Source of the DNA: Escherichia coli O157:H7
Lineage (GTDB): Bacteria; Pseudomonadota; Gammaproteobacteria; Enterobacterales; Enterobacteriaceae
Assembly (NCBI RefSeq): GCF_013167455.1
Contig: NZ_CP038328.1
Strand: one strand, 5' to 3'
Length of the DNA: 64,000 nt
Position 1 is the first letter of the stretch, and every line of letters begins with the position of its first letter. Below the pieces are notes generated by a model that searched no databases, was not told where the DNA came from, and saw only the letters and a list, made by a program, of their open reading frames with translations. Of the stretch, positions 13,884-40,414 are shown one piece after another. The position numbers and the translations under genes are program-made.

Positions 13884-13951
13884 CGGTTTTTCTGTCTATT
13901 TGGGGCAGTGGCGGTAACGTCATCCTGAAAAATGTGGCGCGGCACACTGCG

Positions 13952-13987
13952 ATAAAAAAGAGGGCCTTAAAGATATCATGAAGGCCC
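13952..13987 (-). terminator. Rho-independent terminator downstream of the DruE-like gene
   Basis: On the minus strand: GGGCCTT stem, 12-nt loop, AAGGCCC, followed by CTTTTTT (plus-strand A-run 13954-13959). Confidence 0.5.
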
Positions 13988-14106
13988 CCGGCAAAGTGAC
14001 AAAATGGGAGGGAATGCGCATAAATTGCGCATGATTTTCAAACAAAAATTATTAAAAAGTGAGCTGGGTCAACTCCCCTGGAAGATATCCCCAGGGGAGC
14101 AATTAT

Positions 14107-17100
14107 TTATCCAGCGATAATATAACTCCTAAGGTCATTACCCGGGGCAACAGCTCGCGCTCGCGTGTTTGCCAGCCGTTCAACTTGCTGCGGTACTCGC
14201 AGGGCAAAATCAAAGAAGGTATCTTCAATACAGCGCCAGTAGCTAAGCCCCATGTCGAGCAGGACATAATGCTGACTGCCATCGCTGAAGGTGACTGTCA
14301 GTTCTCGTCCATGCTCCGTACTCTGGTTATCCCCCGTTAACCAGCTAATTGCTCCCGGCCACGCAGGCCCCAGATATCCTTCTTCAAGTAAAGTGGTCAC
14401 AACCTGCTGACGATCTTCCTCATTAAGCCACGCGTTATAGAGAGCGTCGTGTTGGCGAGAGTTGTAATCCAATTTTTTGACGCAAACAGTGAGGCTGGCG
14501 CGTTCCGCCATTCCCTGTTCAACCAGCTCGGTTAAGATTTCACCTAACAAACGCGCCGTGAATGGGCTATTAAGATAACGATCGCTGTACTCAACATGCG
14601 TTATCTCTTTGTGGCGGGTAAATGCCTGCTTCCAGCCAGCGTGCTGTTGCGTGACTAACGACCAGAAACGCGAACCAAAACCTTCCAGCGGCCCGTCCAG
14701 TTGTTCACAGAGATTGATGCGCACCGCCCCGGTGGGTAAGGCGGGCAGTAAATCTTCTGCACTTAAGGTCTGACCCGAGAAGGTTTTTCCGGACGTTCCT
14801 TTAAGTGTCACTACTGGTGAAGACGCACTTTGTCCCCATAATTCACCAGGTGCAACGGTAGCGCTGTCGTCTGCGGCCCACTGTTGGCTTTGCCCTTCGC
14901 GAGTCACCTGCGCAAGCCAGCGCCCCTTTCCTTGCATGAGCTGCGCAGTGGCAATGGATTTCACTTGTAAGCGACCTCCCGGCATCGCCGCCAACGCGGA
15001 AAGCTGATGTCTGGAGCTATCAGTTAAGTTTGCCAGCGGCGTGGCCACCAGCAACTCAACATTCCCACCGGAGGAGGCAAACTGGAGCAACTCTTTAAAT
15101 AATGGCCATTGGGCAAAGTCCCACTGTTCCTGCGGCCCCGCAAGAACCAGCGAGCAGGAGTCATAAATCTCGCTGTTCAGGCATTGCGCAATACGTAAAC
15201 TCAGAGGGTTAGTTTCAACCCGGCTACCATCGCCGAAGTACTGATATTCTGGCGCGAGGTTAAGTCGCTGCAACCGTACATTGGTAAGCAGGGTTAATGC
15301 ATGGTGACGATCTAATCTGTTGACATAATGCTGACTGTCGTAGCTGAGCAAGCAGTGGTGACAGAATTTATCGCAACTGCAATCGAGCAATTTTCTGGCG
15401 TAATTAAAGACATCAGCCCAATGGTCGATCAATTGCACTGCATAACCTGCACCACCCGCATTATTGTCGTAAATGAAGATGGAATATCCGGTATAGCCAT
15501 TGATATCGCGCGCTTGCTGCGTCGTCACGCCCAGCTCAGTATTTTCGATACCCAATTTATGCGCTAACCCTTCACGCAAAGCGACCGCAAGGGAACGCGC
15601 GGCAACCTCATCACGGATCAACAGGCCATTATCATCATTGAGTTGCAGCTCAACCATATCTGTACGACTGCTATATCCCAACCACAGATCTTTATGCACA
15701 TGACCGTGGCACAATTTATTGCTCCCCTGACGATCGTTACTGCCCCCTCGCAACAGGTAATGCGTATTTTCCCTCTCTGGGTTCTTTAGATTTTCAGGGG
15801 TACGCTGGGGTTGAGTTTGAGATTCTGCCCGACCACATGAGAGGCAAATTGCGTAGCCGTGCCCAAATTCCCCTTCACTGAAGTGGAACAATTCCCCACT
15901 ATGGCTAAAACGGTAACGTCCTAGCCCAGCATCGGGTAAAGAAACCCACACCGAAGACGGTACAAGAACACGTGGATCTTTCCAGGGAAGTTGTGCAGGC
16001 ATGGATACATCATTATGTGCCTGATAACGAATATCTGTCGCAAAACCAACAGGCTGTAAATAACGCTTCACATCAAGTTGCTGTATATCCGCTTTGCAGT
16101 GACTACATTCGACAGGATGGGTAGTACTGGTTGCCCCCGCACCACATTTACGGCAATGCCAGAACCACGGAATATGATGATCGCCTGACAGCTCCTGCCC
16201 GCTGGCAAGCACCTTGCCAAGCATAATGCCCGAGGAACGATATACTTTTCCGCCCAATACCACATCTGCACCAGGCGCATACTCGCGTAATGCTGTAGGC
16301 AAATCACGGCTGGGCAATTTTTCAATACGACGAGAAAAGCTTTCTCCCCCTTCATTAGGGTCAGCCTGAGTGGCTTTTATTGCGCGACGTTTTTCCAGCT
16401 CATCTGCCGTCAGATAATTGAAATTGACTACGCCAACCGGGAAACCATGCCCCGGCAGGAACGCTTCACTAATGAGTTTAGAAAACAGATATGCACCGCG
16501 ATAATCACGAAGCTGATAAGCGATGGCTTTACCTGCTGGTGTTTCTTCCCACGCGCTGTTATCCGCCTTCAACGCTTCGATATTTTCCAACAGTATCGCA
16601 AGTTGGCTTCTCCAGCGGATATCAACCTGCTGCATCATTGCTTGTGTGCGGGTCAAGAGCTGGGTTGCCGTCAATGACATCAGTACGGTTCCCTGAGTAA
16701 GGCGTTTAAGTTTATCCGCCAGCTGATCGGCCTGGTGATTTAACCAATGGAGAAAACGAAGACACTGGCTCTCATCACCTTCAAAGAACCATTTGCAACT
16801 CAGTTTTGTCGCATCAGGAACTTCAGCTCGTAAAAACAGACCTAAAACCAGGGCATTAACATGTCGTTGAACAATACTACTGCTCCCAAAACGAACCCGT
16901 GGCGCACTGGCAGTAGTGTTGAACGCCCAGAGGGGGTCTTTGAATACCTCCATTCCATGCGCCGTGTTTTTACATAACGTAATGGCAGCAGATGCACTCT
17001 CTCCACGACGCCCCGCGCGACCTGCACGTTGCAAATAATTTGCCGGCGCTGGAGGAACGTTGTTCATTGCCACCAAACTCATACCACCAATATCCACCCC

Positions 17101-20100
17101 CATCTCCATGGTCGTGGAACAGTTCAGCACATTAACTTTGCCTGACTTAAATTGTTTTTCATTAAACTGGTTCTGCTCAGGCGTTCTCTGCGCAGAGTGT
17201 TCCTCCAGACGATACCAGCTATCTTTCAGGGCCAGTCGGTCGCTGCGAGTAGACCATAATCCTTCCTCGCGGGCATGTTGAATCAGCGCATTACTTTCCA
17301 GCCACTCCAGACGTTCTTCTCGGGCGATTTCTCCACCACCAGACAAACGCCAGTGACGTACAGGAAGCTCAGGCATTTCAATCAACACTGCTTTTTCAGG
17401 TGCAATTTCTTTGCTACCCGGCAAATACGGAGAGTATCCCAGCAACGTGACGTCTAACGCACGTCGAGTATAGGGGCAACGCCACACTTGCTTTGGACTG
17501 TAAAATTCAGCTTGTTGTTTAATATCCAGCTGATAACCCGACTCAAACTGACGTAAGCAGGGTCGAATTGCATCCCAGACCTCAATCATTAAGTGGTTAA
17601 CTAACGATTTCCAGTGAGCCTGCTCAGGTTGTATTGCCGGAAAGACTGCGATTAATAGCTTAATGACCCGGTTATAATGGCGATCGCGTATTTGTGGCCA
17701 AAGTTGATCACGTTTCTGCCCTTTGTTTTTTTTATCTGGCCCCTGGAGCATTTTTACCGGGAAACGTGCCCCCATCCAGCGAGGGTATTGCTCGTTTTCG
17801 TAAAAAACGGCACTGTTTTCACGGATAAAGAAATCAAGAGTAATCTTCAATAAATTACGCCATTCCGCTAATTGCTTATCGGGATCGGGTAATAATGTCT
17901 TCCAGTCCTGCGGGCAGGTTGTAACTTTATCAATGAATGGATAGTGAATGGCTACCAGACCCAGACTTTCGAGGGTCCAGGCATTTTTAGGGCGGCGACC
18001 AAACTCGCTGTATAAACAAAAATCTGCAAACTGTTGTTTAGTAAGATCAAGCCCAGACAATTCTTTAAAACTGCCTCTCATTCTATCGGCAAGGTCCACA
18101 CTGCCAACCAGCTGTTCAGACAGCGTTTGCCATGACATGGTTTTCTTCTGCTGATTGCCAGAGTTAGCCTGAAGTATTTGCATCGCTTCAGCATGCTCCG
18201 TGCTTAAGGAACTCACCATCGGCTCAATAATTTTAAGTGCCTGAATGTCCGTCGGGCTAAGCTCCTCATTCGCAGCCATCGCTTTTTTCAGCGCGTCGAT
18301 GGAATTTTTTAAAGGGAGGACAGAAAACTGGCTAATAACTTTCTCTAACAGTGCACAGTGTGCCGGGCTGAGTTTTGCTGAAGGCTCTGTAATATTTGCC
18401 AGCTCCTGGTAACAAAGAGCTCGCAACGTCGCTTTATCGGCATCCTGCTGTAAGCGGGCTGAAATGCGAGCGGTACCCTGACGCGAATCCGTAAAGGTGA
18501 GCAAGCGTCGACCATTAAACGGTCCTAACTGCTCTTCTCTTGTTTGCGGTAATGGAGAAAACTCCAGCAGAGTAGGAATAATTTCATTTAAAAAAAAGGG
18601 CGCGCCGAGCCGAAGCGGACGGAATAAAGGATTATTTTTCCGTTGAGTGTCACCACAGCAAACACAAGCAAAGGAGTTATTGCGTCCCTCACCTCGAGAT
18701 TCCGGTCTTAACAGGTTTATTTCATAGTGCTTTTGCGCTTCACTATCAATTTTCCCCGCCGTCGTTTCTTCCAGTGAAATGATATATTTTTCACCATCGC
18801 TCGCAATCAGACGATCAAATTGAGAGTTATTGTCTAATTCGTCGTTGTCTTCATCTTCAGAATAAACATCTACATCAAGAGCAAACTCATCCACTTCGGC
18901 AGCGGCTGGTTGCGCTACCAACCAGTTCGTTCCATCACCGCGCATCTCCTCTTTGGCAGACAAATAAGCTGAACCACACCCGGAGCAACGTAAAACTTCA
19001 AATACCGGCGCTCCACAGTCACAATATTGGCGCTGCTCAAACCATACCTGACCAAATGGCCAGTCACTCTGATTTAATTCATGTGCTTTATGTGAGCATT
19101 GTTTGTTTGAACATGCCCATAGACCCGCCAGTGTTCTGATAAACCCATGCATACGTAATGGCGTAAAAGCCAGTTCACCTTCTCGCGATCTTGCCATTAG
19201 ATCGAGGAGTTGCAGTAGCTCACGGTGATTAATATCTGGCCAGGTTCTTCTGGCAACATTGAGCAACTCACTCAAACGTACTGCCTGCCGTCCGGGATGA
19301 GTTAACGCCTGACGCAATTGCTGGGCCACACGGTAATGACAAAGCTGTTGGTAAAGATCCTGAGGGCTCAGGGATTTAAGAGAAGTTAAAGATGTGGGGT
19401 ATTCATGACGAATCAGCGACTCCGATACCCGCGGTATTTGTCGATAACCGCGAACCACTTTGACATCACGTTCTGTAACGCCCGCGAGATCAGCGACAAA
19501 TTTAGCAAGCTCCTTATTACCTTCAGGAGAGTCTTCACCAATAGTGGCAGAGGTCGCGATAATCTGCACAGGTTTATCTGTGCCGGGTCCAACATTGAAA
19601 GCCTGCATAACACGACGTAAAAGCAGCGCTAACTCAGCAGCCTGAGAACCAATATAACTATGGGCTTCATCCAGGACGATATACTTTAACATCCCCTGAG
19701 ACTTTTCGATGATTGGGGCATCTTTACGACGAATCAGCATATATTCCAGCATGGTGGTATTCGTCACCATGATGGAAGGTGGTGCTTCATAAATGGCTTC
19801 CCGACTCAAAGCTTGTTCAGGTACTTTCAACTGATCTTCCTGAATTTCGTATTTGGTATGCCGGGTTTCGCCATTATATAGCGCGAAGCGTATTTTCCCC
19901 TTAAATCCGCGCGTCCATTCGCGAAGCCGCTCCTGTTGGCTGTTAATTAATGCATTTAACGGATACAAGAAAATAGCTTGTGTCCCTGTTAGTGACTGGC
20001 GGGTCGATTTTTGCTGACGAATAAGATCTTCCAGAACCGGTACCATAAAGCATTCTGTTTTCCCGGATCCCGTACCGCTGCTCACTAACAAGGATTTTTT

Positions 20101-20430
20101 GTCTTCCAGAATCGTTCGCCACGCAGTAAGTTGATGACGAAATGGCACTGGCGCTTTGCTCAATGCATCAACCAGCGGGCTGGAGATCAGCTTGTCCCGC
20201 AAATCCTCCATTGTTTCATCCGCAGGCATCCAGCCGAATGTACTTTCGAATACCGGGTCTGCAAGCAGTGACCCCTCCTGACCGGGAGGCTGAAAATATT
20301 GTGATTCCAGATAATGAGTCAACGACTTGCTCCGCAATGCCAACTGACTTACCACCGACCTCACCGCACGCTGATGAAGCTGATTTAGAAGTGGCGCATA
20401 ATGCAGTTGCTGAACGTCCATCAATGACAT
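14107..20430 (-). CDS. druE: DruE-like giant DExH helicase with Zn-finger/DUF1998-like region (2107 aa)
   Basis: Track ORF. Walker A LLVSSGTGSGKTECFM, DEAH box IVLDEAHSY, multiple CxxC pairs, C-terminal Cys cluster LDCSCDKFCHHC. ATG overlaps the end of the upstream 1119-aa gene (10-nt overlap, with a second in-frame ATG in a TGATG arrangement). Confidence 0.75.
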   Translation of the reverse strand: MSLMDVQQLHYAPLLNQLHQRAVRSVVSQLALRSKSLTHYLESQYFQPPGQEGSLLADPVFESTFGWMPADETMEDLRDKLISSPLVDALSKAPVPFRHQLTAWRTILEDKKSLLVSSGTGSGKTECFMVPVLEDLIRQQKSTRQSLTGTQAIFLYPLNALINSQQERLREWTRGFKGKIRFALYNGETRHTKYEIQEDQLKVPEQALSREAIYEAPPSIMVTNTTMLEYMLIRRKDAPIIEKSQGMLKYIVLDEAHSYIGSQAAELALLLRRVMQAFNVGPGTDKPVQIIATSATIGEDSPEGNKELAKFVADLAGVTERDVKVVRGYRQIPRVSESLIRHEYPTSLTSLKSLSPQDLYQQLCHYRVAQQLRQALTHPGRQAVRLSELLNVARRTWPDINHRELLQLLDLMARSREGELAFTPLRMHGFIRTLAGLWACSNKQCSHKAHELNQSDWPFGQVWFEQRQYCDCGAPVFEVLRCSGCGSAYLSAKEEMRGDGTNWLVAQPAAAEVDEFALDVDVYSEDEDNDELDNNSQFDRLIASDGEKYIISLEETTAGKIDSEAQKHYEINLLRPESRGEGRNNSFACVCCGDTQRKNNPLFRPLRLGAPFFLNEIIPTLLEFSPLPQTREEQLGPFNGRRLLTFTDSRQGTARISARLQQDADKATLRALCYQELANITEPSAKLSPAHCALLEKVISQFSVLPLKNSIDALKKAMAANEELSPTDIQALKIIEPMVSSLSTEHAEAMQILQANSGNQQKKTMSWQTLSEQLVGSVDLADRMRGSFKELSGLDLTKQQFADFCLYSEFGRRPKNAWTLESLGLVAIHYPFIDKVTTCPQDWKTLLPDPDKQLAEWRNLLKITLDFFIRENSAVFYENEQYPRWMGARFPVKMLQGPDKKNKGQKRDQLWPQIRDRHYNRVIKLLIAVFPAIQPEQAHWKSLVNHLMIEVWDAIRPCLRQFESGYQLDIKQQAEFYSPKQVWRCPYTRRALDVTLLGYSPYLPGSKEIAPEKAVLIEMPELPVRHWRLSGGGEIAREERLEWLESNALIQHAREEGLWSTRSDRLALKDSWYRLEEHSAQRTPEQNQFNEKQFKSGKVNVLNCSTTMEMGVDIGGMSLVAMNNVPPAPANYLQRAGRAGRRGESASAAITLCKNTAHGMEVFKDPLWAFNTTASAPRVRFGSSSIVQRHVNALVLGLFLRAEVPDATKLSCKWFFEGDESQCLRFLHWLNHQADQLADKLKRLTQGTVLMSLTATQLLTRTQAMMQQVDIRWRSQLAILLENIEALKADNSAWEETPAGKAIAYQLRDYRGAYLFSKLISEAFLPGHGFPVGVVNFNYLTADELEKRRAIKATQADPNEGGESFSRRIEKLPSRDLPTALREYAPGADVVLGGKVYRSSGIMLGKVLASGQELSGDHHIPWFWHCRKCGAGATSTTHPVECSHCKADIQQLDVKRYLQPVGFATDIRYQAHNDVSMPAQLPWKDPRVLVPSSVWVSLPDAGLGRYRFSHSGELFHFSEGEFGHGYAICLSCGRAESQTQPQRTPENLKNPERENTHYLLRGGSNDRQGSNKLCHGHVHKDLWLGYSSRTDMVELQLNDDNGLLIRDEVAARSLAVALREGLAHKLGIENTELGVTTQQARDINGYTGYSIFIYDNNAGGAGYAVQLIDHWADVFNYARKLLDCSCDKFCHHCLLSYDSQHYVNRLDRHHALTLLTNVRLQRLNLAPEYQYFGDGSRVETNPLSLRIAQCLNSEIYDSCSLVLAGPQEQWDFAQWPLFKELLQFASSGGNVELLVATPLANLTDSSRHQLSALAAMPGGRLQVKSIATAQLMQGKGRWLAQVTREGQSQQWAADDSATVAPGELWGQSASSPVVTLKGTSGKTFSGQTLSAEDLLPALPTGAVRINLCEQLDGPLEGFGSRFWSLVTQQHAGWKQAFTRHKEITHVEYSDRYLNSPFTARLLGEILTELVEQGMAERASLTVCVKKLDYNSRQHDALYNAWLNEEDRQQVVTTLLEEGYLGPAWPGAISWLTGDNQSTEHGRELTVTFSDGSQHYVLLDMGLSYWRCIEDTFFDFALRVPQQVERLANTRARAVAPGNDLRSYIIAG

Positions 20431-30144: not shown

Positions 30145-30343
30145 AATGGTCTTCCTTCCATTGGTATCTCGTGAGTATACAAGCAATATCGAATCGGCAA
30201 ATATACTCATTAGTATACTCACAAGCCTGTTGATGTGGGTTGGTTCAGGTTGACTTCAGTTGAGGAGAAAAGCTGGAAAAGCCTTGCGTGGCGCGGATTT
30301 CAGGCATAAAAAAAGACCTCAGTTGAGGTCTATTTACATACTT

Positions 30344-30369
30344 TTGGTGCCGAAGGCCGGACTCGAACC
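30344..30369. repeat. 26-bp direct repeat of the leuX 3-prime end (att-type repeat, island junction)
   Basis: TTGGTGCCGAAGGCCGGACTCGAACC is identical to 40414-40439, which lies inside the tRNA gene; flanks diverge on both sides. Confidence 0.8.
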
Positions 30370-30859
30370 TAAGTCTCCATAACCTGCTGTAATCACGTTC
30401 CTATTAGCCTTTAAAAGAACAATCGTAGGACCTTTTTGTTCTAGGGGCTACATCTTAAGTTTGATCCGCTGGACGGAATCAAACCGAGTGTTCGTGGCGG
30501 CACAAATCATTAACGTGCCATACCTGCCTTTTGATGTTTATGGAGGTCTAGTGGGTCGGGAGGAAAGAACATTTGTCAGCTATGTGGATGTTAAGTAAAC
30601 GCCACTGCGTTCGGATTTTGAAACCAGTTAAACCCCGTCAGACCTTGTTCAGAATAACTATTTAACTCAATGTTATTTATATGAATTAAGCCATTCAGCG
30701 TCAAAGTAAAACGCCACCGTAACGCCTACGTAACGCACCCGCATTTTGCTGTTTTATTCACTCTTATAGAAACAAAGAGCTGATGAAACGTGAGGCTATC
30801 AGCATCTAATGAACACTGTTCATCCATACAGCATGAAAATTCATAAACTTACACTTGAG

Positions 30860-31324
30860 CTACTTTCTCAGCTTGTCCCACCGAACCGCAGATACAATAC
30901 CCCAGTTGCCGCTAGGATTAGGCCTACGCCATTTTGCTGTCTCCATGCTACGAAGATACTCAAGAGCTTCAGAAAACGTGCCAAACCGCTTCTGAGCCGT
31001 TTTATCACCTACGCCAAACGAGCCATCGCGAGTGCTTGCCAGCCCGGGATGAAAACACGAGCCATCAGCTGCATAAGGAACCAGTAATTCCGGGTCACTA
31101 TCTTCAGATGAATCAGACACCAATAGTCGCCACGGCTCAACACTCAGAGCATTAGCCAGCACCTCAATCGCATCCAAAGACGCATTAGAGCCACCGCGTT
31201 CAATGCGGCTCATATAGCTACGAGCAAAACCACACCGATCGGCAAAGGCTTCTTGGCTCATTCCGGTGGCAATGCGCAACTCTTTTACTCGTTGTCCAAA
31301 CAGTTTTCTCAGGGTCATTTTCAT
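30860..31324 (-). CDS. XRE-family helix-turn-helix transcriptional regulator (154 aa)
   Basis: Track ORF; N-terminal HTH LRIATGMSQEAFADRCGFARSYMSRIERG. Confidence 0.7.
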   Translation of the reverse strand: MKMTLRKLFGQRVKELRIATGMSQEAFADRCGFARSYMSRIERGGSNASLDAIEVLANALSVEPWRLLVSDSSEDSDPELLVPYAADGSCFHPGLASTRDGSFGVGDKTAQKRFGTFSEALEYLRSMETAKWRRPNPSGNWGIVSAVRWDKLRK

Positions 31325-31440
31325 GACCTGAATTTGCGCAGATGTCCACTAAAGAGCCACGCTCCAATAGTGACATTTTGAATCAATGGTCTATGATGCG
31401 ATAACTGACACCGCTGGGGTGGATTCTGAGGGATAACAAC

Positions 31441-32214
31441 ATGTCAAAAACACGGCTTAGTAAGCCCGGTTTTTCAGCCAAGTCTGTGCTGACCATTATG
31501 TTAATCGCTGCGTCATCTGCATCTTATGCAGCAGAAAGCATCGATCAACTGGCGACGCGCATCGGTATGGATCACTTCCGGGAAGCGATCAAAAAGGGTG
31601 AACGCAGCGCCTTCAAAACGCTGCCGGCAAAAGGCTATAAAAACGGTCTTACCGGGCTGTTAATCAAAACTAACACTTACGTTAACCCCGAATACAGCTT
31701 TGCTGATTGCGATACGGACACCGTTATTATCTCGGTGCAAGAACACAAAACGCTTCCCGGTTGCCGTATATCTTTAAAGCTAGCGACAAAAGACGCAGAT
31801 GGCAGTTATCACGACAATGGAATTCGCGTTGAATACGGTATTGCCATCGGCTCCAAAAAGTTTATCGCTAACAATTCAGCGTGGGCGCAACATGCCATCA
31901 GCGGTGATAAAGTGTTGGAAGGCGCTCTCCACCCGGATAAAACGAATAACAATAAAGATCAAATGAATAACAATAAAGATCAAATGTGCATGGGTATGGC
32001 TCAATTTACCGCAAACGTAACCGAAGGCCGTAACAGTGGGATGACGAAAAGAGAATATTATCAGCGACTTGATAACATGAACGGTAAGGCCGACGTCACC
32101 CAGCAGATGATAACGCTCTATAAGACTTTTGTTGACTACGTATATGAACATCCAAAGCAAGACGCAAAGATTTCAGGGACGTATATTTATACTAACTGTA
32201 TGAACAACTTCTAG
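31441..32214 (+). CDS. Secreted or periplasmic protein of unknown function (257 aa) with internal NNNKDQM tandem duplication
   Basis: Track ORF; Sec-type signal peptide (hydrophobic core LTIMLIAASSASYA then AES); divergent from the XRE regulator. Confidence 0.6.
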   Translation: MSKTRLSKPGFSAKSVLTIMLIAASSASYAAESIDQLATRIGMDHFREAIKKGERSAFKTLPAKGYKNGLTGLLIKTNTYVNPEYSFADCDTDTVIISVQEHKTLPGCRISLKLATKDADGSYHDNGIRVEYGIAIGSKKFIANNSAWAQHAISGDKVLEGALHPDKTNNNKDQMNNNKDQMCMGMAQFTANVTEGRNSGMTKREYYQRLDNMNGKADVTQQMITLYKTFVDYVYEHPKQDAKISGTYIYTNCMNNF

Positions 32215-32365
32215 AAACGTAGGTGCCTGAACATGATAGAACTCAGCTGCCAGCATAGAGTGGAAAGCGGAGGCTTACCATCGTATATTCATCGCGTTAT
32301 CTTTCCGTAACTATAATCTGTCTCAGTTGATCTAGTGCCTTTCAGGGCTGAACTAAGGAATAAAG

Positions 32366-33682
32366 ATGAATGACGGTGTTATGCTAGATTCTGACGTTAT
32401 TGCTGGTCTTGAGTGGTTAGCATCAACTCAAGAGAACAAACAACACTTTTACCAGCGCTTAGCAAAAGCACAGCAATTTTACATAGCTACAACCCAAAAA
32501 GCTGCCAATTTCGGGAAACAGTTTGACCCAGAATGGTATGGTTCCGACGTGGTTGCTGGTTATTTCGCACAAGCAAAATCGCTTATCGATAATAGAAGGT
32601 CTTACGAAGTTACTAATGCTTCAAATATAATACCATGGGTTAAACAATTAGGAGTGTGTGCTAAATCGCTCGATAGAATTACTGGCGCTAGAGATCGCGC
32701 AATCAGAATGCTTAAGAATACAACAGTATTACCAGACACAGCCTTATTAGAGTTGGTTCTTGCTGGAAACTATGCATCAGAAGGTTATGAAGTTGAGTTC
32801 ATTCCAGAACAAAAAGGGATAGCAAAAACCCCGGAGTTTCGTTGCCGCCTTGGAGATGGCGATTATTTCTTTGTCGAATGCAAAAGGCTTCAGAAAGGTC
32901 CTTACGTAAAGCAGGAAATATTACAGCATCATATACGCTCACATCTTGCCGAACTTCATATCAAATCCAAAAAGATGAACGTATGGACTGATGTCACATA
33001 TTTATGTGAAGTTAAAGACGCGCCTGAAAACTATATCATTAGCCACTTAAAAAACTTTAAAGGTGTATTTTATGAATGGAATGATGATTATGGAAAAGGA
33101 ACGATTAGACCGGCCAACTTAAATCTTATCAGGGAAGATATCACTGAAAACGGCTCATTACTAGTCAACACTAAACTTGCTCGTCTTATCAAAGGCTCCC
33201 CTCTGGAAGATGAAAATTACCAAGTTGTTGCTATGGGACGACCAGATGAGCGCGACTCACGTTTCATAACCAAAGTTAAACTTGCTTCTTTGATAACATG
33301 GCGTTGTATCAATGAAAAATCTTTCGATGCACGTTCGCGACATGTAACAAAAACATTAGCAGAGATAGATAACCAGCTTTTGGATTATGGTCTAGGCGTA
33401 GGGCATATAGCTTTGGATGTAGATATTCAAAAGGATGTTGCCGATAAACGAAGGGAAAAAAACTATGCTGCCATAGTAAATTTTGAGCAAAAATCTAAAA
33501 TAGTCCGCCTGAATGTTCATTATCTCGTGCCACGCATAGATGAGAACTCTGCGTGGATGGTAGATGAAACTGCGGATGACTTTTTTACCCATGATCTGGT
33601 CAAATATGTTATCCCATTGACTAAAATATTCCCCGAGGCTGAGGTATTTGAGAATGACCAACCTGGCTGGCATCAAAATTAA
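32366..33682 (+). CDS. Hypothetical protein (438 aa), AT-rich; possible PD-(D/E)xK-type nuclease motif
   Basis: Track ORF with AAGGA ribosome-binding site; segment GDGDYFFVECKRL fits a D...ExK pattern. The assignment is weak. Confidence 0.5.
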   Translation: MNDGVMLDSDVIAGLEWLASTQENKQHFYQRLAKAQQFYIATTQKAANFGKQFDPEWYGSDVVAGYFAQAKSLIDNRRSYEVTNASNIIPWVKQLGVCAKSLDRITGARDRAIRMLKNTTVLPDTALLELVLAGNYASEGYEVEFIPEQKGIAKTPEFRCRLGDGDYFFVECKRLQKGPYVKQEILQHHIRSHLAELHIKSKKMNVWTDVTYLCEVKDAPENYIISHLKNFKGVFYEWNDDYGKGTIRPANLNLIREDITENGSLLVNTKLARLIKGSPLEDENYQVVAMGRPDERDSRFITKVKLASLITWRCINEKSFDARSRHVTKTLAEIDNQLLDYGLGVGHIALDVDIQKDVADKRREKNYAAIVNFEQKSKIVRLNVHYLVPRIDENSAWMVDETADDFFTHDLVKYVIPLTKIFPEAEVFENDQPGWHQN

Positions 33683-33880
33683 TTTATTTTTGATAGTATG
33701 AACGAGGGTAGCATTTCTATACAAATCAGTGTTCGGCTGATAGCGAGTTAAACAGTTTACTGAAATGTTCTCAGCAATTAGCTGTTGCCAGGACCTCAAA
33801 AATCCGATTCTGGCGGAAAGTGTGCTGTTTTACCAAGTATTGCTCGTATCTGCAAAGTGTTAGAGCATGTTTTAAGTATA

Positions 33881-34450
33881 TCAGTAACCCTTATTCAGTA
33901 ATGCAGCAAGCGTCGCTCTTGAAACACCGTATTCACGCGCCAATGCGCTAACACTAACCCCAGCGGCCCTTTTGTCTAAAATCGCTCCACGAGCTTCCGG
34001 TGCGATTTTAGCAGGCCTGCCCAATTTCCTGCCTTCAGCTTTTGCCCGTAACAGCCCCGCATTAGTCCGTTCAATCAGCAGGTCACGCTCCATCTCCGCA
34101 ACCGCTGCTAGCATCGACAACAGGAGCTTACCGGCAGCAGAGGTGAGATCAGTGGTGCCAAGCTGATGGACAATAACCTTGATGTTTCGGTCAGCCAACG
34201 TCCTGACAGTTTGCAGAACGTCAATTGCATCACGCCCGAGGCGGTCCAGCTTTGCAACTACCAACGTTTCCCCATCGCGGATTTTGCTGAGCATTTCAAA
34301 AAACGCTTTGCGTTGCACCGCAGGAACCTTTCCGCTGACTACATCAGAAAACCAAAAGTCGAACGTCCACCCAGCTTGTTCAAGTTCCATGCGCTGGTTC
34401 TCAGTATCCTGCTGGGATGTCGAAACACGCCCGTAGCCAAAAATAGCCAT
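33881..34450 (-). CDS. Serine recombinase (resolvase/invertase family, ~189 aa)
   Basis: Track ORF trimmed to MAIFGYGRVSTSQQ; catalytic Ser in the GYGRVS motif, VAKLDRLGRD, C-terminal HTH. Confidence 0.8.
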   Translation of the reverse strand: MAIFGYGRVSTSQQDTENQRMELEQAGWTFDFWFSDVVSGKVPAVQRKAFFEMLSKIRDGETLVVAKLDRLGRDAIDVLQTVRTLADRNIKVIVHQLGTTDLTSAAGKLLLSMLAAVAEMERDLLIERTNAGLLRAKAEGRKLGRPAKIAPEARGAILDKRAAGVSVSALAREYGVSRATLAALLNKGY

Positions 34451-34642
34451 AGTCATCTCCTCATCCGGCCCCTGCCAGAAAACGGTGATGAAAATAGGAT
34501 GGCCTGCCGGAAAAGCCAAGGCTAATTTTCCAACAGTGTGAAAGCGTGCGGTTGGAGGATGCCGGAAAACGGTCGTTTGTTGGCGCTTAAAACGGGTGAA
34601 GACATGTTAGGCTGAAACCATCACTTCATAAGGACAACCGAA

Positions 34643-35110
34643 ATGATTAAAGACGCGATTTTTTCACCGTGCGGTAAGTATCGCTACTCGTTATCACGAG
34701 TCTGGGACGAATCAAAACCGTATACCCTTTTCATAGGGCTAAACCCTTCATACGCCGATGCCGAGAAGGATGATCGCACCTTGAGCCGCTGCATATCGTT
34801 TGCCAAAAGCTGGGGCTACGGTGGCGTATACATGGCCAACCTGTTCGCATTCGTTCACACCCAGCGACATGAAATGATGAAAGCGTCTGATCCCATTGGC
34901 AAAGATAACGATAGCCACTTGATACGTCTTGTTAGCGGTGCCGGACTGGTTGTCGCCGCATGGGGAAATGAAGGAAGACACCTCAAACGCTCAACGACCG
35001 TCCGACAGCTATTGCCAGAGAGCACAATGTGCTTCGTCTTAAACGCTACAGGTGAGCCGAAGCACCCTTTGTATATGAAAAACGACAGTGTTCTCATACC
35101 TTTAGGTTAA
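34643..35110 (+). CDS. DUF1643-family protein (155 aa)
   Basis: Track ORF; FSPCGKYRYSLSRVWD and LNPSYADAEKDD blocks recalled as DUF1643 hallmarks; divergent from the serine recombinase. Confidence 0.6.
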   Translation: MIKDAIFSPCGKYRYSLSRVWDESKPYTLFIGLNPSYADAEKDDRTLSRCISFAKSWGYGGVYMANLFAFVHTQRHEMMKASDPIGKDNDSHLIRLVSGAGLVVAAWGNEGRHLKRSTTVRQLLPESTMCFVLNATGEPKHPLYMKNDSVLIPLG

Positions 35111-36113
35111 CATCGATAACTGCGTTCAGAATATGAACGCAGCCATATGATATATATGACTTTTCTTTAAAATGATGGTGTGCTAGCTTCTCTCCTGACA
35201 CCTACCTCATGCGGTAAACCGGTCCGGGTAGGTGGAGATCACCGCTGTTTAGCGGAAGACGTCAGGATGGGAACTCTGCGTAACGTTGATTGTGGTAGGT
35301 AGGGCGCGCAAGCGTTTGATGCAGCCAAGCAGAGGGTGAAAGTAGCTATCGGCGGATTCTTAAGTAGCTTCTTTTGCGCATAATGCATCTTTCAAGAAAG
35401 GTCGTCACACCACGAGGAAGACTTGATCTTCATCTGGCAAGGGGAACCGAGCAAACCTACAGGCTATCTTCTCAGATGGCCTTAGGGTTGATATGTCCGG
35501 CTTCCCCCCCGAGGAAGGGTTTACATCTTAAAGAACAAGTTATGTTTTAACATTTTTAACAATTACACTTCTCTGCTGTTTGGTGTCTTATGGCGTTCCC
35601 GTCAAAAGTAAAGCTGCCGTTTTTACCTCACATGCGTAACAACCAAACACGAACCAGAAGCTGCTAACGTTCAACGTGTTCGCGGTGTAAATGCAGCCGG
35701 ATAAGTTGGGAGCGAAAAAGTGGATGTCCTAGGTTTGGAAGCGCCCCTCTTAAGCATTGCATCCGATAATTTCCGTGGCGGTGAGACAGTCCTTATAGAG
35801 GCAATCAGCCTCCAAAGTTAAGCGACGCGGTAAAACTAAAGCTCGCCCAGATTTCTCATTGATTGCTCGAACTCCGCTACGCTTGTTTCAACTGGCTTCA
35901 CCAGTCACTCTATGAGAGCGCCGCGAATTCTGCACCATGATTTCGACTACCTTCTTTAAAACACTCGCCAGAGAGCCTTACAGCGCGTTTGAACCGCATA
36001 TCGCAGCTTCTGCTTACGGATGACTGTCTGATTAGCAGTAGCTTCATGGCCCAGTCCGGTTTACTTTATTGCTATCAACTAGGAGCCGCCCAAGGGCAAC
36101 ACGGAGATAACGC

Positions 36114-36446
36114 TTGAGAACCGTCGAAATACTGCAATACACCTTACGCAAAGGCAGCGGTGCCGCTTTTCACGCCATAATGCAGGAAATCAGTGTTCCC
36201 CTACACCAAAGCCACGGGATCGATGTTGTTTCGTTTGGCAACTCGCTTGATGACCTGGATTGCTACTACTTGATTCGCGCCTTTGACAGCGCTAAAAGCA
36301 TGACTGCGGTTCTCGATGCTTTTTACGCAAGCGCAGACTGGCGCAGCGGCCCACGCGAAGACATCATTGGCAGCATAGAGAACTGCATTAAAACAGTGAT
36401 TAGCCTACCATCAGAAAGCGTGAAAGGGCTGCGGATGCAATCGTAA
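36114..36446 (+). CDS. Small protein (110 aa), NIPSNAP-like / dimeric alpha-beta-barrel candidate
   Basis: Track ORF with TTG start and GGAG ribosome-binding site; pattern VEILQYTLRKGSGAAF...YYLIRAFDS resembles NIPSNAP-type proteins. Confidence 0.4.
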   Translation: MRTVEILQYTLRKGSGAAFHAIMQEISVPLHQSHGIDVVSFGNSLDDLDCYYLIRAFDSAKSMTAVLDAFYASADWRSGPREDIIGSIENCIKTVISLPSESVKGLRMQS

Positions 36447-36567
36447 GTAATCAAGTGTATTAGCTTAGATTTGACCTAAACAGCTTTGTGCCAAAAGTGG
36501 ACTAGGAAAAGCCTAGCGATAAAGAGTTGAGTTTAATAACTACTAACTGAAATTTAATGGGTGATAT

Positions 36568-36945
36568 ATGAATTTAGATGAAGAATTTTACGAATTACAA
36601 AAACTCTTTGCTCAGAAGGATCTACTGACTGAGAAAAGACGCTCTAGTGGCGGCGGATTCATGGAAATTCTCTTGGTGAAGAGACAGAACATGAAGATAA
36701 AAATATATCAAGAAAAAGGACATCAACTTCCCCATATTCATATTGACTATGGAAAACAAGCGCATGCTGCCAGTTATGCCATACAATCAGGAGACCGCAT
36801 AGAGGGAGATTTACCTAAGAAATATGATAGTGATGTTTCGAGTTGGTTGGGGAGAAATCGTGATAAAATTTTAGAAATCTGGAATGCACTACAAGCTGGC
36901 GCACCTTATGAACCACTAATCGCAGAATTGACTGGCGGAGTGTGA
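36568..36945 (+). CDS. DUF4160-like small protein (125 aa)
   Basis: Track ORF; PHIHIDYGKQ motif typical of the DUF4160 family as I recall it. Confidence 0.5.
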   Translation: MNLDEEFYELQKLFAQKDLLTEKRRSSGGGFMEILLVKRQNMKIKIYQEKGHQLPHIHIDYGKQAHAASYAIQSGDRIEGDLPKKYDSDVSSWLGRNRDKILEIWNALQAGAPYEPLIAELTGGV

Positions 36946-37127
36946 CTAACTAAATAATTTTCCCCTAAAAAAATTCGATGTAGGAAAATATATATAAGTA
37001 AGAATCATGAGTGTCCGCTCCTCGCTCAAGGCGGACTGTTAGACTTGATTGTATGCTGTCAGAGAAAACCGTCAGATCAATTCTGTGAACCGCCCCGGGT
37101 TTCCTGGAGAGTGTTTTATCTGTGAAC

Positions 37128-38018
37128 TCAGGCTGCCAGATCATCGTTTCCGATGGAAGCATAATAAGCTTTTTCTGCTTCTGCCGGAGGAGTATGGCCC
37201 AGCCTTCCCAGCAATCGTCGATTGTTATACCAGTCCACCCACGTTAGTGTGGCCAGTTCCACTTCTGCACGGTTTTTCCAGCTCTTACGGTGTATTACCT
37301 CCGCTTTGTAAAGACCATTGATGCTCTCAGCCATCGCGTTGTCATACGAGTCGCCTGTACTCCCTGTTGATGCCAGTAATCCGGCTTCTTTTAGTCGCTC
37401 CGTATAGGCCAGTGACACATACTGAGAGCCTTTATCGCTGTGATGGATGGTGCCAGACGGACGACGGGCCCACAACGCCTGCTCCAGCGCATCCAGCACG
37501 AATGTCGTTTCCATAGACGATGAGACCCGCCACCCCACGATGTATCCGGCAAACACATCAATGATAAACGCCACATAGACGAAGCCCTGCCATGTGCTGA
37601 CGTAAGTAAAATCAGCCACCCACAGCTGGTCAGGTCGTTCTGCCACGAACTGACGGTTTACGCGGTCGCCTGCGGCAACGGCTTTCCGGCTGATGGTCGT
37701 ACGGACCTTTTTACCCCGGAGAACACCGGCAAGTCCCATAACCGCCATGAGACGTGCCACTGTACATCTGGCCACCCTGATTCCTTCCCGTAACAACTGA
37801 CGCCAGACTTTACGCACACCGTACACCTGATGATTTTCATCGTATACGCGCTGTATCTCTCTCTTCAGCCAGTCGTCGTGCTGCGCACGGGCACTGCGTT
37901 TATCCGGATGATGTCGCTGTTGCTGACAATGGTAATACGTTGACGGGGCAATATGCAGTTCGCTGCATACCGGTCCGACCCCGTACTGCTCACGCAGCTT
38001 ATCCAGCAGTGGCATCAT
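37128..38018 (-). CDS. IS629-like transposase OrfB (DDE catalytic domain)
   Basis: Track ORF; DDE region ...WVADFTYV...[11 protein letters not shown]...[16 protein letters not shown]. Confidence 0.85.
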
Positions 38019-38341
38019 TTTTTCCAGAGGCGGTCGAACTCCGCCTTCGCAAAATAAGCGGAAGCCTGGCGAAGGATATCGTTACTGCGGCGCAGTTCAC
38101 GATTTTCACGTTCCAGCTCTTTCAGACGCTGACGTTCAGCGCTGGTGAGCCCACCATCACCGCCCCCGGTATCCCGCTCATGCTGGCGAACCCAGACACG
38201 CAGAGTCTCCGGCGTACAGCCAATCTTTGGGGCAATGGAACAAATTGCCGCCCACTGTGAGTCATATTCATCCTGACTTTCCAGAACCATACGAATCGCC
38301 CGCTGACGGACTTCGGGGGAAAAACGAGTATTTTTAGTCAT
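38015..38341 (-). CDS. IS629-like transposase OrfA (108 aa)
   Basis: Track [25 protein letters not shown]...; HTH plus leucine zipper, matching IS629 OrfA from memory. Confidence 0.85.
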
Positions 38342-38392
38342 CCTGTTTACCTCTTTCTCAGGGAGTTTAGTCTCCAGGATTTCCGGGGCGGT

Positions 38393-40366
38393 TCACTTTC
38401 TTCGCAGCGCATCTCTTACAGCATCCAGCCCATCAGGAATGTTGAATCTCGCTATCTCGGGCAAAGAAAAATCAATCTTTTCGACAACCTCAACCATGTG
38501 AACCGGTTTTAAATCTTTGCTGTATCGCACTTCAGTTTCTGTTTTGCCTCGCACATGCCCAAGTAGCTGCCCACGCAGTTCCGAACTAACACCCTTCTCT
38601 TTAAGCAAAGTTGAAACAGAATGCCGGAAAGAGTGGAAAGATTTGCTTCTGTCTCTTTCAAGTTTTAATCGACCCGCAAGCAATGATTCATTGAACCATG
38701 CGGAAACCGGCCTACCATAGCCTTTGGTTTTATGTGGTTTAAGCTCGGGAAAAAGACGGTCATACCCGGCAGCTTTCAACGCATCCACATACTCGATAAA
38801 ACCGAGTTCAATCAGCGTAGAATGAACCGGAATCTTGCGGCGGGAATTGGCGTTTTTTAGTTTCTTTCCGTTTTCGCTATCGCTTTCAAGGTTCAGGTAA
38901 TAAACGCCGTCATCTGCCAGAACATCGTCCAGCATTAACTGTGCAATCTCGTTAACCCTTGCCCCCGTCATCAAGCCCAACAACGGCGCCCAATAGTGAA
39001 ACGGGCAATATTGATGGAATCGCCCTTGCGCATTACGTTCAACAGTTCCAGCGACAAACCACGGTTGCGAAAAAATTGCCTTAATTTCATGCGGTTCAAA
39101 TATGTCAGTGTGATCCTGCTCTCGCTCACCTTTGTCATCGGGAGGGAAAAAGTTGTCGCATGGCGATTTCAGAAACTTACCATCATCAACAGCCCACTCC
39201 ATTGCACCATAAAGGCCGTTGATATACTTTTTGACAGACTCTTCTGTCATCAGTTTATCGCCACATTCTGCCGCTTTGGCGATTAACTCATCCAGCGTCT
39301 TAACCCCGTGCTTACCTTTCATCAAATTACGGTTAGCAGGAATTGTGCGCAACTTGCTCTCATAAGCCCGGAGGAAATCACGGTCGAAATCTTCCAACTG
39401 AATATCCCCCATCACTTCAATCATCAAATCGAAGTAATAGCGAATATCGCGGAGCGCCGCTTCTGATACCTTGCCCTTACGTCGATGTTTCAAATACTCT
39501 TCACGAAGCCATGACAAGTTTTCATTGTAATGTTTGCGGTGAACATATTCATTAGCGATAACAGGAGCGACAAGAGGCACGGCAGGGTGAATGCTAACTG
39601 CTGGTGGCGTGGTCTTAACCAGCCATGTAAGTCGAAGGCCTTCAGCATGAACTTTGCTAATCAACAGGCTATCAGCAGTTATATCTACGCCGGGTAAATC
39701 GAAGAACCAACCTCCACTTTGGTTATCACCACTAGTTCGAAATGCAGCCTCTCCTTCGGATACTCCAGCGCTCAACAGACAATCTAAAGTATGCCGGGGA
39801 TTGAAGGGGCGGAGATAACCATTTGCGAAGCTCTCGATACCCAGCTCAAACGCGCTATTGAGAATGATGACTTCTTTAGGTTGATCCTTTTCATCATCAG
39901 ACTGTTTTTCTCGTTTTGCACCCGGTTCCCGCTCTACTGCATTAAATTCATCAACATAGAAACCGAACTGACCAGTCGCCAGCCAGAATACCGGGAGGTT
40001 ACGATTAACCACCTCTCGAATCAATTGCGATATAGGCAACTCGATTGATTGAGCAAAGTTAGAAAGCGAGATCATACCCTCACCAGCAAGCAGTGGGGCG
40101 CAGTCACTTAAAGTTCGATAATCCAATTGTTCATACTCTTGTAAGGTCTGATACCAGACCGCCAACAGGAGCGCGGACTTCTGCTTTGCTTCATGAAGAT
40201 CGTGAGTGCCTGTTGAAGTGTGAATCTCACACTGTCCTGCGTATCGACGAAAACGTTGGGGAACGCTAATGCGGACAACATAAATGCCGCTGGTTCGACG
40301 ATAGAGTTTATATCGCTGAGACATCGCCTCGTATACCCTTTTGTAAGAGGGGCTACGCGATTTCAA
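38393..40366 (-). CDS. Tyrosine recombinase / integrase with long N-terminal extension (657 aa), next to leuX
   Basis: Track ORF; catalytic signature TGARVNEI...HSFRHSVSTLL...LLGH...VRYSKDL. The stop codon is supplied by the IS629 terminus. Confidence 0.75.
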   Translation of the reverse strand: MKSRSPSYKRVYEAMSQRYKLYRRTSGIYVVRISVPQRFRRYAGQCEIHTSTGTHDLHEAKQKSALLLAVWYQTLQEYEQLDYRTLSDCAPLLAGEGMISLSNFAQSIELPISQLIREVVNRNLPVFWLATGQFGFYVDEFNAVEREPGAKREKQSDDEKDQPKEVIILNSAFELGIESFANGYLRPFNPRHTLDCLLSAGVSEGEAAFRTSGDNQSGGWFFDLPGVDITADSLLISKVHAEGLRLTWLVKTTPPAVSIHPAVPLVAPVIANEYVHRKHYNENLSWLREEYLKHRRKGKVSEAALRDIRYYFDLMIEVMGDIQLEDFDRDFLRAYESKLRTIPANRNLMKGKHGVKTLDELIAKAAECGDKLMTEESVKKYINGLYGAMEWAVDDGKFLKSPCDNFFPPDDKGEREQDHTDIFEPHEIKAIFSQPWFVAGTVERNAQGRFHQYCPFHYWAPLLGLMTGARVNEIAQLMLDDVLADDGVYYLNLESDSENGKKLKNANSRRKIPVHSTLIELGFIEYVDALKAAGYDRLFPELKPHKTKGYGRPVSAWFNESLLAGRLKLERDRSKSFHSFRHSVSTLLKEKGVSSELRGQLLGHVRGKTETEVRYSKDLKPVHMVEVVEKIDFSLPEIARFNIPDGLDAVRDALRRK

Positions 40367-40414
40367 GCAAGATTATGAATTAAATTGTTTTAAAACAATA
40401 GTTTAGATGAGTCT

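Follow-up and report, generated by a model that had tools for sequence, protein, structure and literature searches.

Introduction

Why should a small genomic island that already possesses a tyrosine integrase also carry a gene for a serine recombinase? This question is raised by a locus of Escherichia coli O157:H7, in which the gene for a small serine recombinase (resolvase) on the minus strand and a gene of the DUF1643 family on the plus strand are arranged back to back. All coordinates below refer to the window, which is the whole 64-kb stretch of O157:H7 DNA that was analyzed (Table 1). A preliminary description of this DNA had reported the divergent pair, a GC content exceeding that of the genes to its left and a location on a tyrosine-integrase island, and these three observations are borne out. 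The two genes match PF00239 and PF07799, respectively, with DUF1643 at 34643-35110; their GC contents are 52.3% (resolvase) and 48.9% (DUF1643) versus 39.6% and 44.4% for the left neighbors; and 26-nt repeats bound a 10.1-kb element with a 643-amino acid (aa) integrase. The same description considered the recombinase to be a second recombination system, such as an invertible switch, a resolution site or a transposon remnant. As described below, the resolution site holds, in the form of a tripartite res upstream of the gene, and the switch and the remnant are abandoned. The answer favored here is that a functional-looking resolvase of the type known from Tn3 and Salmonella genomic island 1 (SGI1), together with its own res, is likely a core part of a widespread family of small islands, in which it would resolve tandem copies and thereby shuffle modules.

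An Intact Small Serine Resolvase

The resolvase gene is intact. Its longest open reading frame (ORF) extends over 33881-34519 on the minus strand, and the PF00239 match covers residues 4-142. The translation start is likely to be the ATG at 34450 and not the TTG at 34519, because RefSeq annotates the former and because this ATG and a GAGGAG Shine-Dalgarno sequence are kept in all aligned relatives; in the same alignment, the intervening 34451-34519 is conserved non-coding DNA of res. The entire protein can be aligned with gamma-delta resolvase (E=9e-27) and Tn3 resolvase (E=3e-23), and the match to the Gin invertase (E=1e-21) is weaker. Comparison with gamma-delta resolvase revealed that both catalytic motifs are kept, namely GRVSTSQQ, with the RVS nucleophile motif (R8 and S10), and KLDRLGRD, with the DRLGR motif and the equivalents of D67, R68 and R71. 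Regarding the C-terminal helix-turn-helix (HTH), the gamma-delta alignment reaches residue 187 of 189, and HTH_7 is matched with 19.9 bits, which is under the Pfam cut-off of 23.8. The ratio of nonsynonymous to synonymous substitution rates (dN/dS) is 0.08-0.14, indicating purifying selection. Resolvase identity ranges from 71 to 100% from E. coli to Pseudomonas, with relatives at 73-90% in Cronobacter, Klebsiella, Enterobacter, Yersinia, Pantoea and Pseudomonas.

A Tripartite res Site Upstream of the Resolvase Gene

A search for recombination sites near the gene pair uncovered a conserved, res-like tripartite site. This intergenic res occupies 113 bp (34473-34585) just upstream of the resolvase start codon and resembles those of Tn3 and SGI1. 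When the 260 nt upstream of the resolvase start were aligned for ten loci from four genera, approximately 135 bp next to the gene were kept in all ten, and the homology then ended abruptly regardless of the flank. In 66 unique res sequences, three high-information blocks of 26, 31 and 21 bp stand out, designated subsites A, B and C, and 102 loci, ranging from E. coli to Pseudomonas, carry the conserved res. Subsite A, which is site I-like, has a central AC dinucleotide. Subsite B is composed of the inverted half-sites TGTTGGAAAA and TGCCGGAAAA flanking AGCCTTG; the Pseudomonas version has TGTCAGAAAA in both halves, and thus the two halves change together. The center-to-center distances are 52.5 bp between A and B and 37 bp between B and C, and the ATG lies 22 bp past subsite C. 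The half-site motif TGYYRGAAAA is found ten times in the window versus 2.0 expected, and four of these matches are within 97 bp of res. Tripartite architecture of this kind is that of Tn3-type resolution systems, and binding of the resolvase is predicted from it. A half-site scan for a second resolvase site at the other end of the gene, where the slot-2 cargo described below begins, found none, and the homology there simply stops at the resolvase stop codon. The protein and the site are a new small serine resolvase and a new Tn3-type res site, respectively.

Because some relatives are labelled “DNA invertase Pin-like” in their sources and Gin is a significant match in the structural database, a DNA invertase of the Hin/Gin/Pin type, which flips a nearby segment to switch cargo expression, has to be weighed. 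Like these enzymes, the resolvase is a PF00239 protein with a C-terminal HTH, is of comparable size and has a 26-bp crossover site whose core is 2 bp long. However, inversion systems use two inverted sites and an enhancer, whereas the O157 system has one site with two accessory sites, and neither an invertible segment nor an inversion polymorphism was found. Specifically, a single crossover-type site is present in 64 kb; and the inverted repeats within approximately 2.5 kb (search of 31300-37200) are at most 25 nt long and 71-93% complementary, none of them with the half-site motif and none of them a hix-like pair. The 2.1-kb segment around the gene pair was found at 636 places in 635 E. coli genomes, where the listed two-piece matches are insertions of insertion sequences (ISs) and inversion-type split matches are essentially absent. 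Gene order and orientation are also fixed in all loci with enough flank, and the protein scores better against the gamma-delta and Tn3 resolvases than against Gin. An invertible switch is therefore extremely improbable.

A Family of Islands with Two Cargo Slots

Neighborhoods of resolvase relatives and a second E. coli strain at leuX revealed a recurring layout: a tyrosine integrase of 640-654 aa (DUF6538 + Phage_integrase, a domain assignment made for the O157 integrase), a first cargo slot (slot 1), res, the resolvase, a second cargo slot (slot 2) and an HTH_31 protein of 154-162 aa. A two-block pattern from res was used to collect 76 metagenome loci, which gave 102 loci carrying the pattern together with the earlier ones. 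A scan of species-representative genomes with an 18-nt pattern from subsite B yielded mostly chance matches, with at least five true loci among the matches listed. Counting only loci with enough flank, the resolvase is present in 90 of 92, integrase homologs in 30 of 34 and the HTH regulator in 53 of 57, and the order integrase > res > resolvase > HTH and the orientations are fixed throughout. The two ends of this backbone behave differently: the HTH protein (58-100% identity across loci) tracks the resolvase, whereas integrase identity is only 34-85%, even between loci whose resolvases are 100% identical.

The cargo is variable on both sides. Elsewhere in the family, slot 1 holds full-length matches to Gabija GajA, AbiLi/AbiLii, the candidate system PDC-S06 and Shedu SduA, as well as TIR, NACHT/STAND, HNH, KAP-NTPase, PD-DExK (DUF6602), GTPase and DEAD/ResIII helicase proteins; slot-1 cargo consists mostly of anti-phage defense genes. 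Slot 2 is exchanged for unrelated genes in WS4437A and in the Klebsiella, Yersinia and Pseudomonas relatives; its contents include SIR2_2 + DUF4365 in Klebsiella, an AIPR protein in another E. coli strain and, in five loci (L017-L021), a metallo-beta-lactamase-fold protein with a TetR regulator. The two slot-2 genes of O157 (257 and 438 aa) have no Pfam or PADLOC match. Given the SIR2_2 + DUF4365 and AIPR contents of this slot elsewhere, they may form an undescribed defense or conflict system. The N-terminus of the 257-aa protein is signal-peptide-like, and homologs of this protein occur in 22 of the 102 res-bearing loci. When the resolvase, DUF1643 and their neighbors were submitted to PADLOC, the sole match was the HTH protein, which matched control-protein models.

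The resolvase-DUF1643 pair could also be what remains of a decayed Tn3-family transposon that had inserted into the island, with tnpR and res retained and tnpA lost. The res architecture and the protein are indeed Tn3-like, and the divergent gene-res-resolvase layout recalls tnpA-res-tnpR. Against this origin, the neighboring ORFs scanned with Pfam include no transposase except that of a later IS3-family element, and a repeat search found no long flanking inverted repeats. Approximately 100 loci in several genera keep the fixed order, with the DUF6538-type integrase upstream and the HTH_31 gene downstream, and both the resolvase and res are clearly constrained. Copies on plasmids are pieces of this island flanked by ISs and not transposons; a plasmid multimer-resolution system was rejected on the same observation. 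A transposon remnant is accordingly very unlikely.

Homology Breakpoints at Subsite A

In 85 loci with adequate flanks, 31 mutually unrelated cargo-side clusters are joined to one homologous side composed of res and the resolvase. Single resolvase clusters (at least 97% identity) are joined to up to four unrelated cargo clusters, and the DUF1643 cargo cluster is joined to nine resolvase clusters; the flanks of res thus assort independently. When pairs of elements with different cargo are anchored at the central AC, they are 95-100% identical from position 0 and fall to chance level past the outer half-site. Among 26 non-redundant pairs that are identical on the res side, the first mismatch outward is as near as -3, and, going inward, four of the five pairs with an identical cargo side first differ at +9 and the fifth at +22; as many loci are close relatives, these pair counts are not counts of independent events. 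The junction appears, from these alignments, to be bracketed between -3 and +9 around the central AC. A less biased test took pairs with unrelated cargo sides that were chosen solely by at least 99% identity in the distal part of the resolvase gene (+400 to +680). In 18 of these 19 pairs, no more than three mismatches are found up to the center of subsite A, versus a background median of 60 per 400 nt.

The outer half-site of subsite A stays with the cargo. Its variant goes with the cargo cluster and not with the resolvase cluster: CGCCAA... is constant among members of the DUF1643 cluster, as is TGTCATCAATCG among those of another one. Two to four different variants occur within single resolvase clusters, and elements with a 100% identical inner side differ at 3-5 of the 12 positions of the outer half-site. 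The same joint is seen in the window itself between O157 and WS4437A, which share approximately 85% identity across the resolvase gene and approximately 99-100% from subsite A through DUF1643 and the next kilobase, with the switch in identity located at subsite A. The integrases of these two elements are 81% identical despite the approximately 100% identical DUF1643 blocks, which represents mosaicism within the integrase-side module. Four Pseudomonas elements with 100% identical resolvases have integrases that are 48-85% identical, and two Yersinia elements (L022 and L023) with 100% identical resolvases and HTH proteins have integrases that are 68% identical. These patterns point, indirectly, to strand exchange at the central dinucleotide of subsite A.

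Proposed Mechanism

In the mechanism proposed here, resolvase dimers would occupy all three subsites. A molecule with two directly repeated res copies would arise from tandem island integration or from a dimer of the excised circle, and cutting and rejoining at the central AC of subsite A would reduce such an array to a single copy. If the two res copies came from different family members, the product would be a hybrid with the integrase and slot-1 cargo of one member and the resolvase, slot-2 cargo and HTH gene of the other, the halves being joined at subsite A; resolution between different members would thereby generate the combinatorial mosaics. By analogy with tnpA in Tn3, occupancy of res by the resolvase may also repress DUF1643, since 57 bp separate the end of subsite A from the start codon of that gene. 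A simple sigma-70 scan of the resolvase-DUF1643 intergenic region found no promoter. A further-reaching proposal is that subsite A acts as a universal joint across Gammaproteobacteria, at which modules of integrase and anti-phage cargo are exchanged against modules of resolvase, cargo and regulator by site-specific crossover; the chances for and against this generalization appear about even.

Several points weigh against the proposed resolution mechanism. Arg2 and Glu56 act in the regulatory (R / 2-3') interface of the resolvases from Tn3 and gamma-delta (10.1101/2021.12.07.471667), and these Tn3-type interface residues are absent from the O157 protein, in which residue 2 is Ala and the position aligned to 56 is Arg; the synaptic complex may differ owing to the Ala in place of Arg at residue 2. 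In O157, subsite C is weakly symmetric and its limits are uncertain. Subsite A has one copy in the window (allowing up to three mismatches), meaning that a two-res substrate is not currently present, and no tandem of two family members was recovered among the 102 collected loci. In the pattern used for the metagenome loci, the core of subsite B and, in subsite A, positions -2 to +6 are fixed, so that conservation there is partly imposed, and the breakpoint is mappable no finer than this invariant core. In addition, one of the 19 less biased pairs has a mosaic tract beginning inside res, from which it follows that homologous recombination also contributes. In at least 14 O157:H7 genomes among those listed (H1-H14), the recombinase gene is interrupted by an IS1203 copy and annotated as two pieces, indicating that the resolvase is dispensable to the host. 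Binding, cleavage and resolution by the resolvase are all computational predictions.

The last-mentioned mosaic pair bears on another explanation, in which the upstream region is only an operator, the protein is an autorepressor and a repressor of the cargo, and the mosaics arise by homologous recombination in the backbone. Tn3 resolvases repress through res, and the mosaic tract inside res, together with the integrase-side mosaicism between O157 and WS4437A, fits this explanation. However, homologous breakpoints would be expected anywhere in the conserved block of 1.3-4.5 kb, whereas 18 of the 19 pairs are near-identical to the center of subsite A. The inheritance of the outer half-site with the cargo cluster and the pile-up of junctions at one dinucleotide would be left unexplained, and all catalytic residues are kept. 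Repression as the only function is thus unlikely, and site-specific resolution at subsite A is preferred, with homologous recombination probably contributing to the mosaics.

DUF1643 as Interchangeable Cargo

The DUF1643 protein matches PF07799 over profile positions 1-134 of 134 and belongs to a family (COG4333) for which 1470 homologs were found; its dN/dS of 0.05-0.10 indicates purifying selection. Apart from islands, the family occurs in phages, as ISL3 cargo and in ccr complexes of the staphylococcal cassette chromosome (SCC), where DUF1643 genes lie next to serine recombinases (PMC10581047). The preliminary description implied a functional pairing of the resolvase with DUF1643, and the two genes might accordingly form a dedicated unit, for example, a DNA-modifying or repair enzyme working with the recombinase. 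They are adjacent and divergent in O157, WS4437A, Klebsiella and the plasmid fragments, and distant DUF1643 genes also adjoin recombinase genes in prophage-like elements, as do those of the staphylococcal ccr complexes. Comparative genomics does not uphold the pairing: DUF1643 stands beside res in only 28 of 87 loci with enough flank, unrelated genes do so otherwise, and 31 unrelated sequences hold the slot. A NUDIX gene intervenes between DUF1643 and the resolvase in Yersinia, and the DUF1643 gene of Shewanella has no recombinase nearby. Where DUF1643 has decayed, by a frameshift in WS4437A (L002, 18222-18688) or to a 99-nt remnant in YZMc3-1 (L228, 5565-5663), the adjacent resolvase and res are intact. 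Furthermore, the inferred crossover separates the two genes, which assort independently of each other. A dedicated two-gene unit is highly improbable, and the loci that lack DUF1643 beside res mark it as one of many interchangeable slot-1 cargo genes, not as the partner of the resolvase, as far as gene neighborhoods tell.

The more distant relatives of DUF1643 (65-74% identity; L006-L009 and L012-L016) are located at the extreme ends of prophage-like elements with a major capsid E gene and a DEAD helicase gene, near actS/ygeR. There, either an unrelated resolvase (210 aa) or a tyrosine recombinase (186 aa) comes next, which makes a second, independent case of DUF1643 being associated with recombinase genes at the ends of elements.

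Regarding the activity of DUF1643, a model of the protein predicted with AlphaFold2 (AF2) has a pLDDT of 92.6 and gave weak matches to the uracil-DNA glycosylase (UDG) and TOPRIM folds. In the family alignment, the invariant GLNPS, N66, F68, WG and HPL follow the order of the UDG motifs, among which motif A comes after the first core strand of the alpha/beta fold and an HPS-like motif B lies close to the C-terminus. In hhalign, the DUF1643 motifs are placed opposite GINPG of Mug and LLLN and LLWG of Ung, with negligible probability and with approximate Mug and Ung sequences. PF03167 had no match among 35 DUF1643 family members, Foldseek against the Protein Data Bank (PDB) gave nothing at E<=0.001, and no meaningful PDB match emerged from sequence searches, whether these used the protein alone or a profile. 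A structure search of BFVD matched solely DUF1643-like phage proteins. UDG-fold anti-phage effectors have been proven in the cases of Brig1 (PMC11078745) and Brig2 (10.1101/2025.10.29.685425). As such effectors exist and DUF1643 fills a slot for defense cargo, it is reasonable to hypothesize that DUF1643 is a Brig-like, compact UDG-like DNA glycosylase in phage defense; this second, weaker reading is tentative and, on the evidence above, rather doubtful.

SpLE5 at leuX

The 2.1 kb around the resolvase-DUF1643 pair is 100% identical to E. coli O157:H7 chromosomes and is present in 635 of 5426 complete E. coli genomes. The surrounding 10.1-kb element is delimited by a perfect 26-nt direct repeat, TTGGTGCCGAAGGCCGGACTCGAACC, which represents the 3' end of tRNA-Leu and has copies at 30344-30369 and 40414-40439. 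In Sakai, SpLE5 is the element between tRNA-Leu and the next integrase, with SpLE6 following (table in PMC8190617), and the O157 island at leuX matches SpLE5. In TR01, the order from tRNA-Leu is a site-specific integrase, DUF4160, NIPSNAP, DUF1643, the recombinase, two hypothetical genes and the HTH gene, beyond which lies a second island with a truncated integrase, type II Zorya and large helicases. The features of the window are listed in Table 1.

Table 1. Coordinates of the island features in the 64-kb window, with the subsites of res given on the resolvase strand.
Feature	Coordinates	Strand	Basis
Distal element end, attR-like (26-nt direct repeat, tRNA-Leu 3' end)	30344..30369		Perfect repeat match
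HTH_31/HTH_3 regulator, 154 aa; resolvase-side backbone gene	30860..31324	-	PF13560, E=2e-13
Cargo slot 2 (resolvase 3' end to HTH gene): two AT-rich genes, 257 aa and 438 aa	31441..33682	+	No family match
Small serine recombinase (resolvase), 189 aa, intact	33881..34450	-	PF00239, E=5e-36; gamma-delta alignment
res subsite C, site III-like, 21 bp, weak symmetry, closest to resolvase start	34473..34493	-	Conserved block; half-site TGCCAGAAAA
res subsite B, site II-like, 31 bp	34505..34535	-	TGTTGGAAAATT-AGCCTTG-GCTTTTCCGGCA
res subsite A, site I-like, 26 bp, predicted crossover	34560..34585	-	CGCCAACAAACG-AC-CGTTTTCCGGCA; central AC at 34572-34573
DUF1643 gene, 155 aa; first slot-1 cargo gene	34643..35110	+	PF07799, E=1e-42
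Slot-1 stretch without ORF >58 aa, unannotated	35111..36113		Conserved 1 kb
Slot-1 cargo: NIPSNAP-like gene	36114..36446	+	Pfam; in 30/102 loci
Slot-1 cargo: DUF4160 gene	36568..36945	+	Pfam; in 2/102 loci
IS3-family insertion (IS1203/IS629 type, 1332 bp), not ancestral	37085..38416	-	Boundaries from comparison with TR01, which is without the insertion
Tyrosine integrase, 643 aa (DUF6538 + Phage_integrase); integrase-side backbone gene	38393..40324	-	Pfam
tRNA-Leu (CAA), leuX, integration site; 3' end is the proximal 26-nt repeat copy	40415..40499	-	ARAGORN and repeat

The IS3-family element sits 13 nt inside the 3' end of the integrase gene, by which the terminal ELI* is changed to RDALRRK*. 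A degenerate third copy of the 26-nt repeat (69% identical) at 30460-30485, 116 bp inside the distal end, may have been left by an earlier integration or excision. An Rfam scan of 30000-41000 at E<=1 found an IS frameshift pseudoknot, the tRNA and one chance-level match, and nothing else.

None of the 663 E. coli genomes with the stretch between DUF1643 and the NIPSNAP-like gene (35111-36113) has an annotation there, and Rfam gave no match. The first half of this stretch accompanies DUF1643: in one locus (L216), 35281-35512 is 96-97% identical versus 82-85% for the 3' half of DUF1643. Another family member, which lies at tRNA-Gly, has homologs (77-84% identity) of the part at approximately 35640-35990 immediately 3' of its integrase gene. 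The z-scores for RNA folding are -2.3 for the plus strand and -1.7 for the minus strand. The stretch could be a non-coding RNA, a regulatory region or a relic. A pseudogene of the 337-aa protein that follows DUF1643 in Klebsiella was considered and rejected, as tblastn found no similarity.

Beyond the distal end of SpLE5, the adjoining island, which is SpLE6 by position and lies at approximately 13500-30340 (by offset from locus L001, 1-16645), carries several defense genes. These include type II Zorya (zorA2, zorB2 and zorE) and a restriction endonuclease that binds phosphorothioated DNA, together with a protein of the STY4851/ECs_5259 family and two very large DEAD/DEAH helicases. This island begins with a truncated P4-type integrase (29362-30144) and has no res. 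As an island with defense genes directly adjoins SpLE5, leuX hosts a tandem array of defense islands, and tandem accretion at leuX is visible in the window, with SpLE5 followed by the island of the P4-type integrase.

Comparison with Known Systems

SGI1 is the one characterized precedent for a resolvase and res carried by a tyrosine-integrase island. Its Res (S027) clears tandem multimers of the island in vivo (Veress, Szabo and Kiss 2025, PMC12217951), and its res, verified experimentally in the same study, has boxes of 28, 30 and 25 bp, a distance of 51 bp between the centers of boxes I and II, and a central AC instead of AT; box III is weakly symmetric and adjoins the start codon. The corresponding values of O157 are 26, 31 and 21 bp and 52.5 bp; the O157 architecture is nearer to this site than to the res of Tn3. 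The two systems share a small serine resolvase with a Tn3-like tripartite res, box I in the distal position, box III by the start codon and an AC crossover, and the likeness rests on site architecture and context. By analogy, the function demonstrated for SGI1, the removal of tandem multimers, is the one proposed for the O157 resolvase. The differences are considerable: SGI1, at 43 kb, is mobilizable and carries genes for replication and transfer, whereas the O157 element is approximately 8.8 kb with none recognizable, and the SGI1 res is usually destroyed by integron insertion, whereas the O157 res is intact and marks the joint of two freely assorting modules.

The closest solved structures are those of the resolvases from Tn3 and gamma-delta. 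The res of Tn3 is 114 bp long, with three dimer-binding sites separated by unequal spacers and catalysis at site I only (10.1101/2021.12.07.471667). These systems and that of O157 have the catalytic residues, three unequal sites upstream of the gene and a divergent neighbor across res in common. In contrast, the O157 system is without a DDE transposase, terminal inverted repeats and cointegrate-forming replicative transposition, and it differs in Ala instead of Arg at residue 2, in the half-site TGYYRGAAAA and in a central AC instead of AT.

Two further groups of elements resemble the O157 family in composition. GMT islands have a backbone of two tyrosine recombinases and an StbA-like protein, with no serine recombinase and no res (10.1101/2023.03.28.534373). 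They share with the O157 family a small backbone for mobility and regulation, variable anti-phage cargo and occurrence in Gammaproteobacteria, whereas the backbone of the O157 family comprises two modules joined at res. In SCC ccr complexes, as in O157, DUF1643 lies beside serine recombinases on a chromosomal cassette; however, the ccr enzymes are large serine recombinases that integrate and excise the cassette, whereas the O157 enzyme is a small resolvase for which DUF1643 is optional. The literature on DUF1643, DUF6538, SpLE5, leuX with defense, and resolvase with integrase and defense, searched in an incomplete library, holds no description of the family. In the searchable literature, the compact integrase-res-resolvase-HTH family with two slots for defense cargo, and with subsite A as the joint of its modules, is thus undescribed.

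Implications for Defense Islands

Defense islands are known to be mosaic, and the mechanisms of their reshuffling are mostly unknown; a precise, sequence-defined joint offers an explanation. A joint at the central AC would explain how integration specificity and two sets of cargo recombine in islands of E. coli, Klebsiella, Yersinia and Pseudomonas. If true, this would be a serine-recombinase route to the shuffling of defense genes and integration specificities, loosely like the exchange of integron cassettes. If the activity of the resolvase is confirmed, the case of SGI1 would be extended, and island resolution systems would generally characterize small islands and would drive their evolution in addition to controlling copy number. 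The 113-bp res also provides a tag for finding slots rich in known and candidate defense genes, including DUF1643 and its unannotated O157 neighbors. For O157:H7 itself, SpLE5, so far an uncharacterized “prophage-like element”, becomes interpretable as a mobile element.

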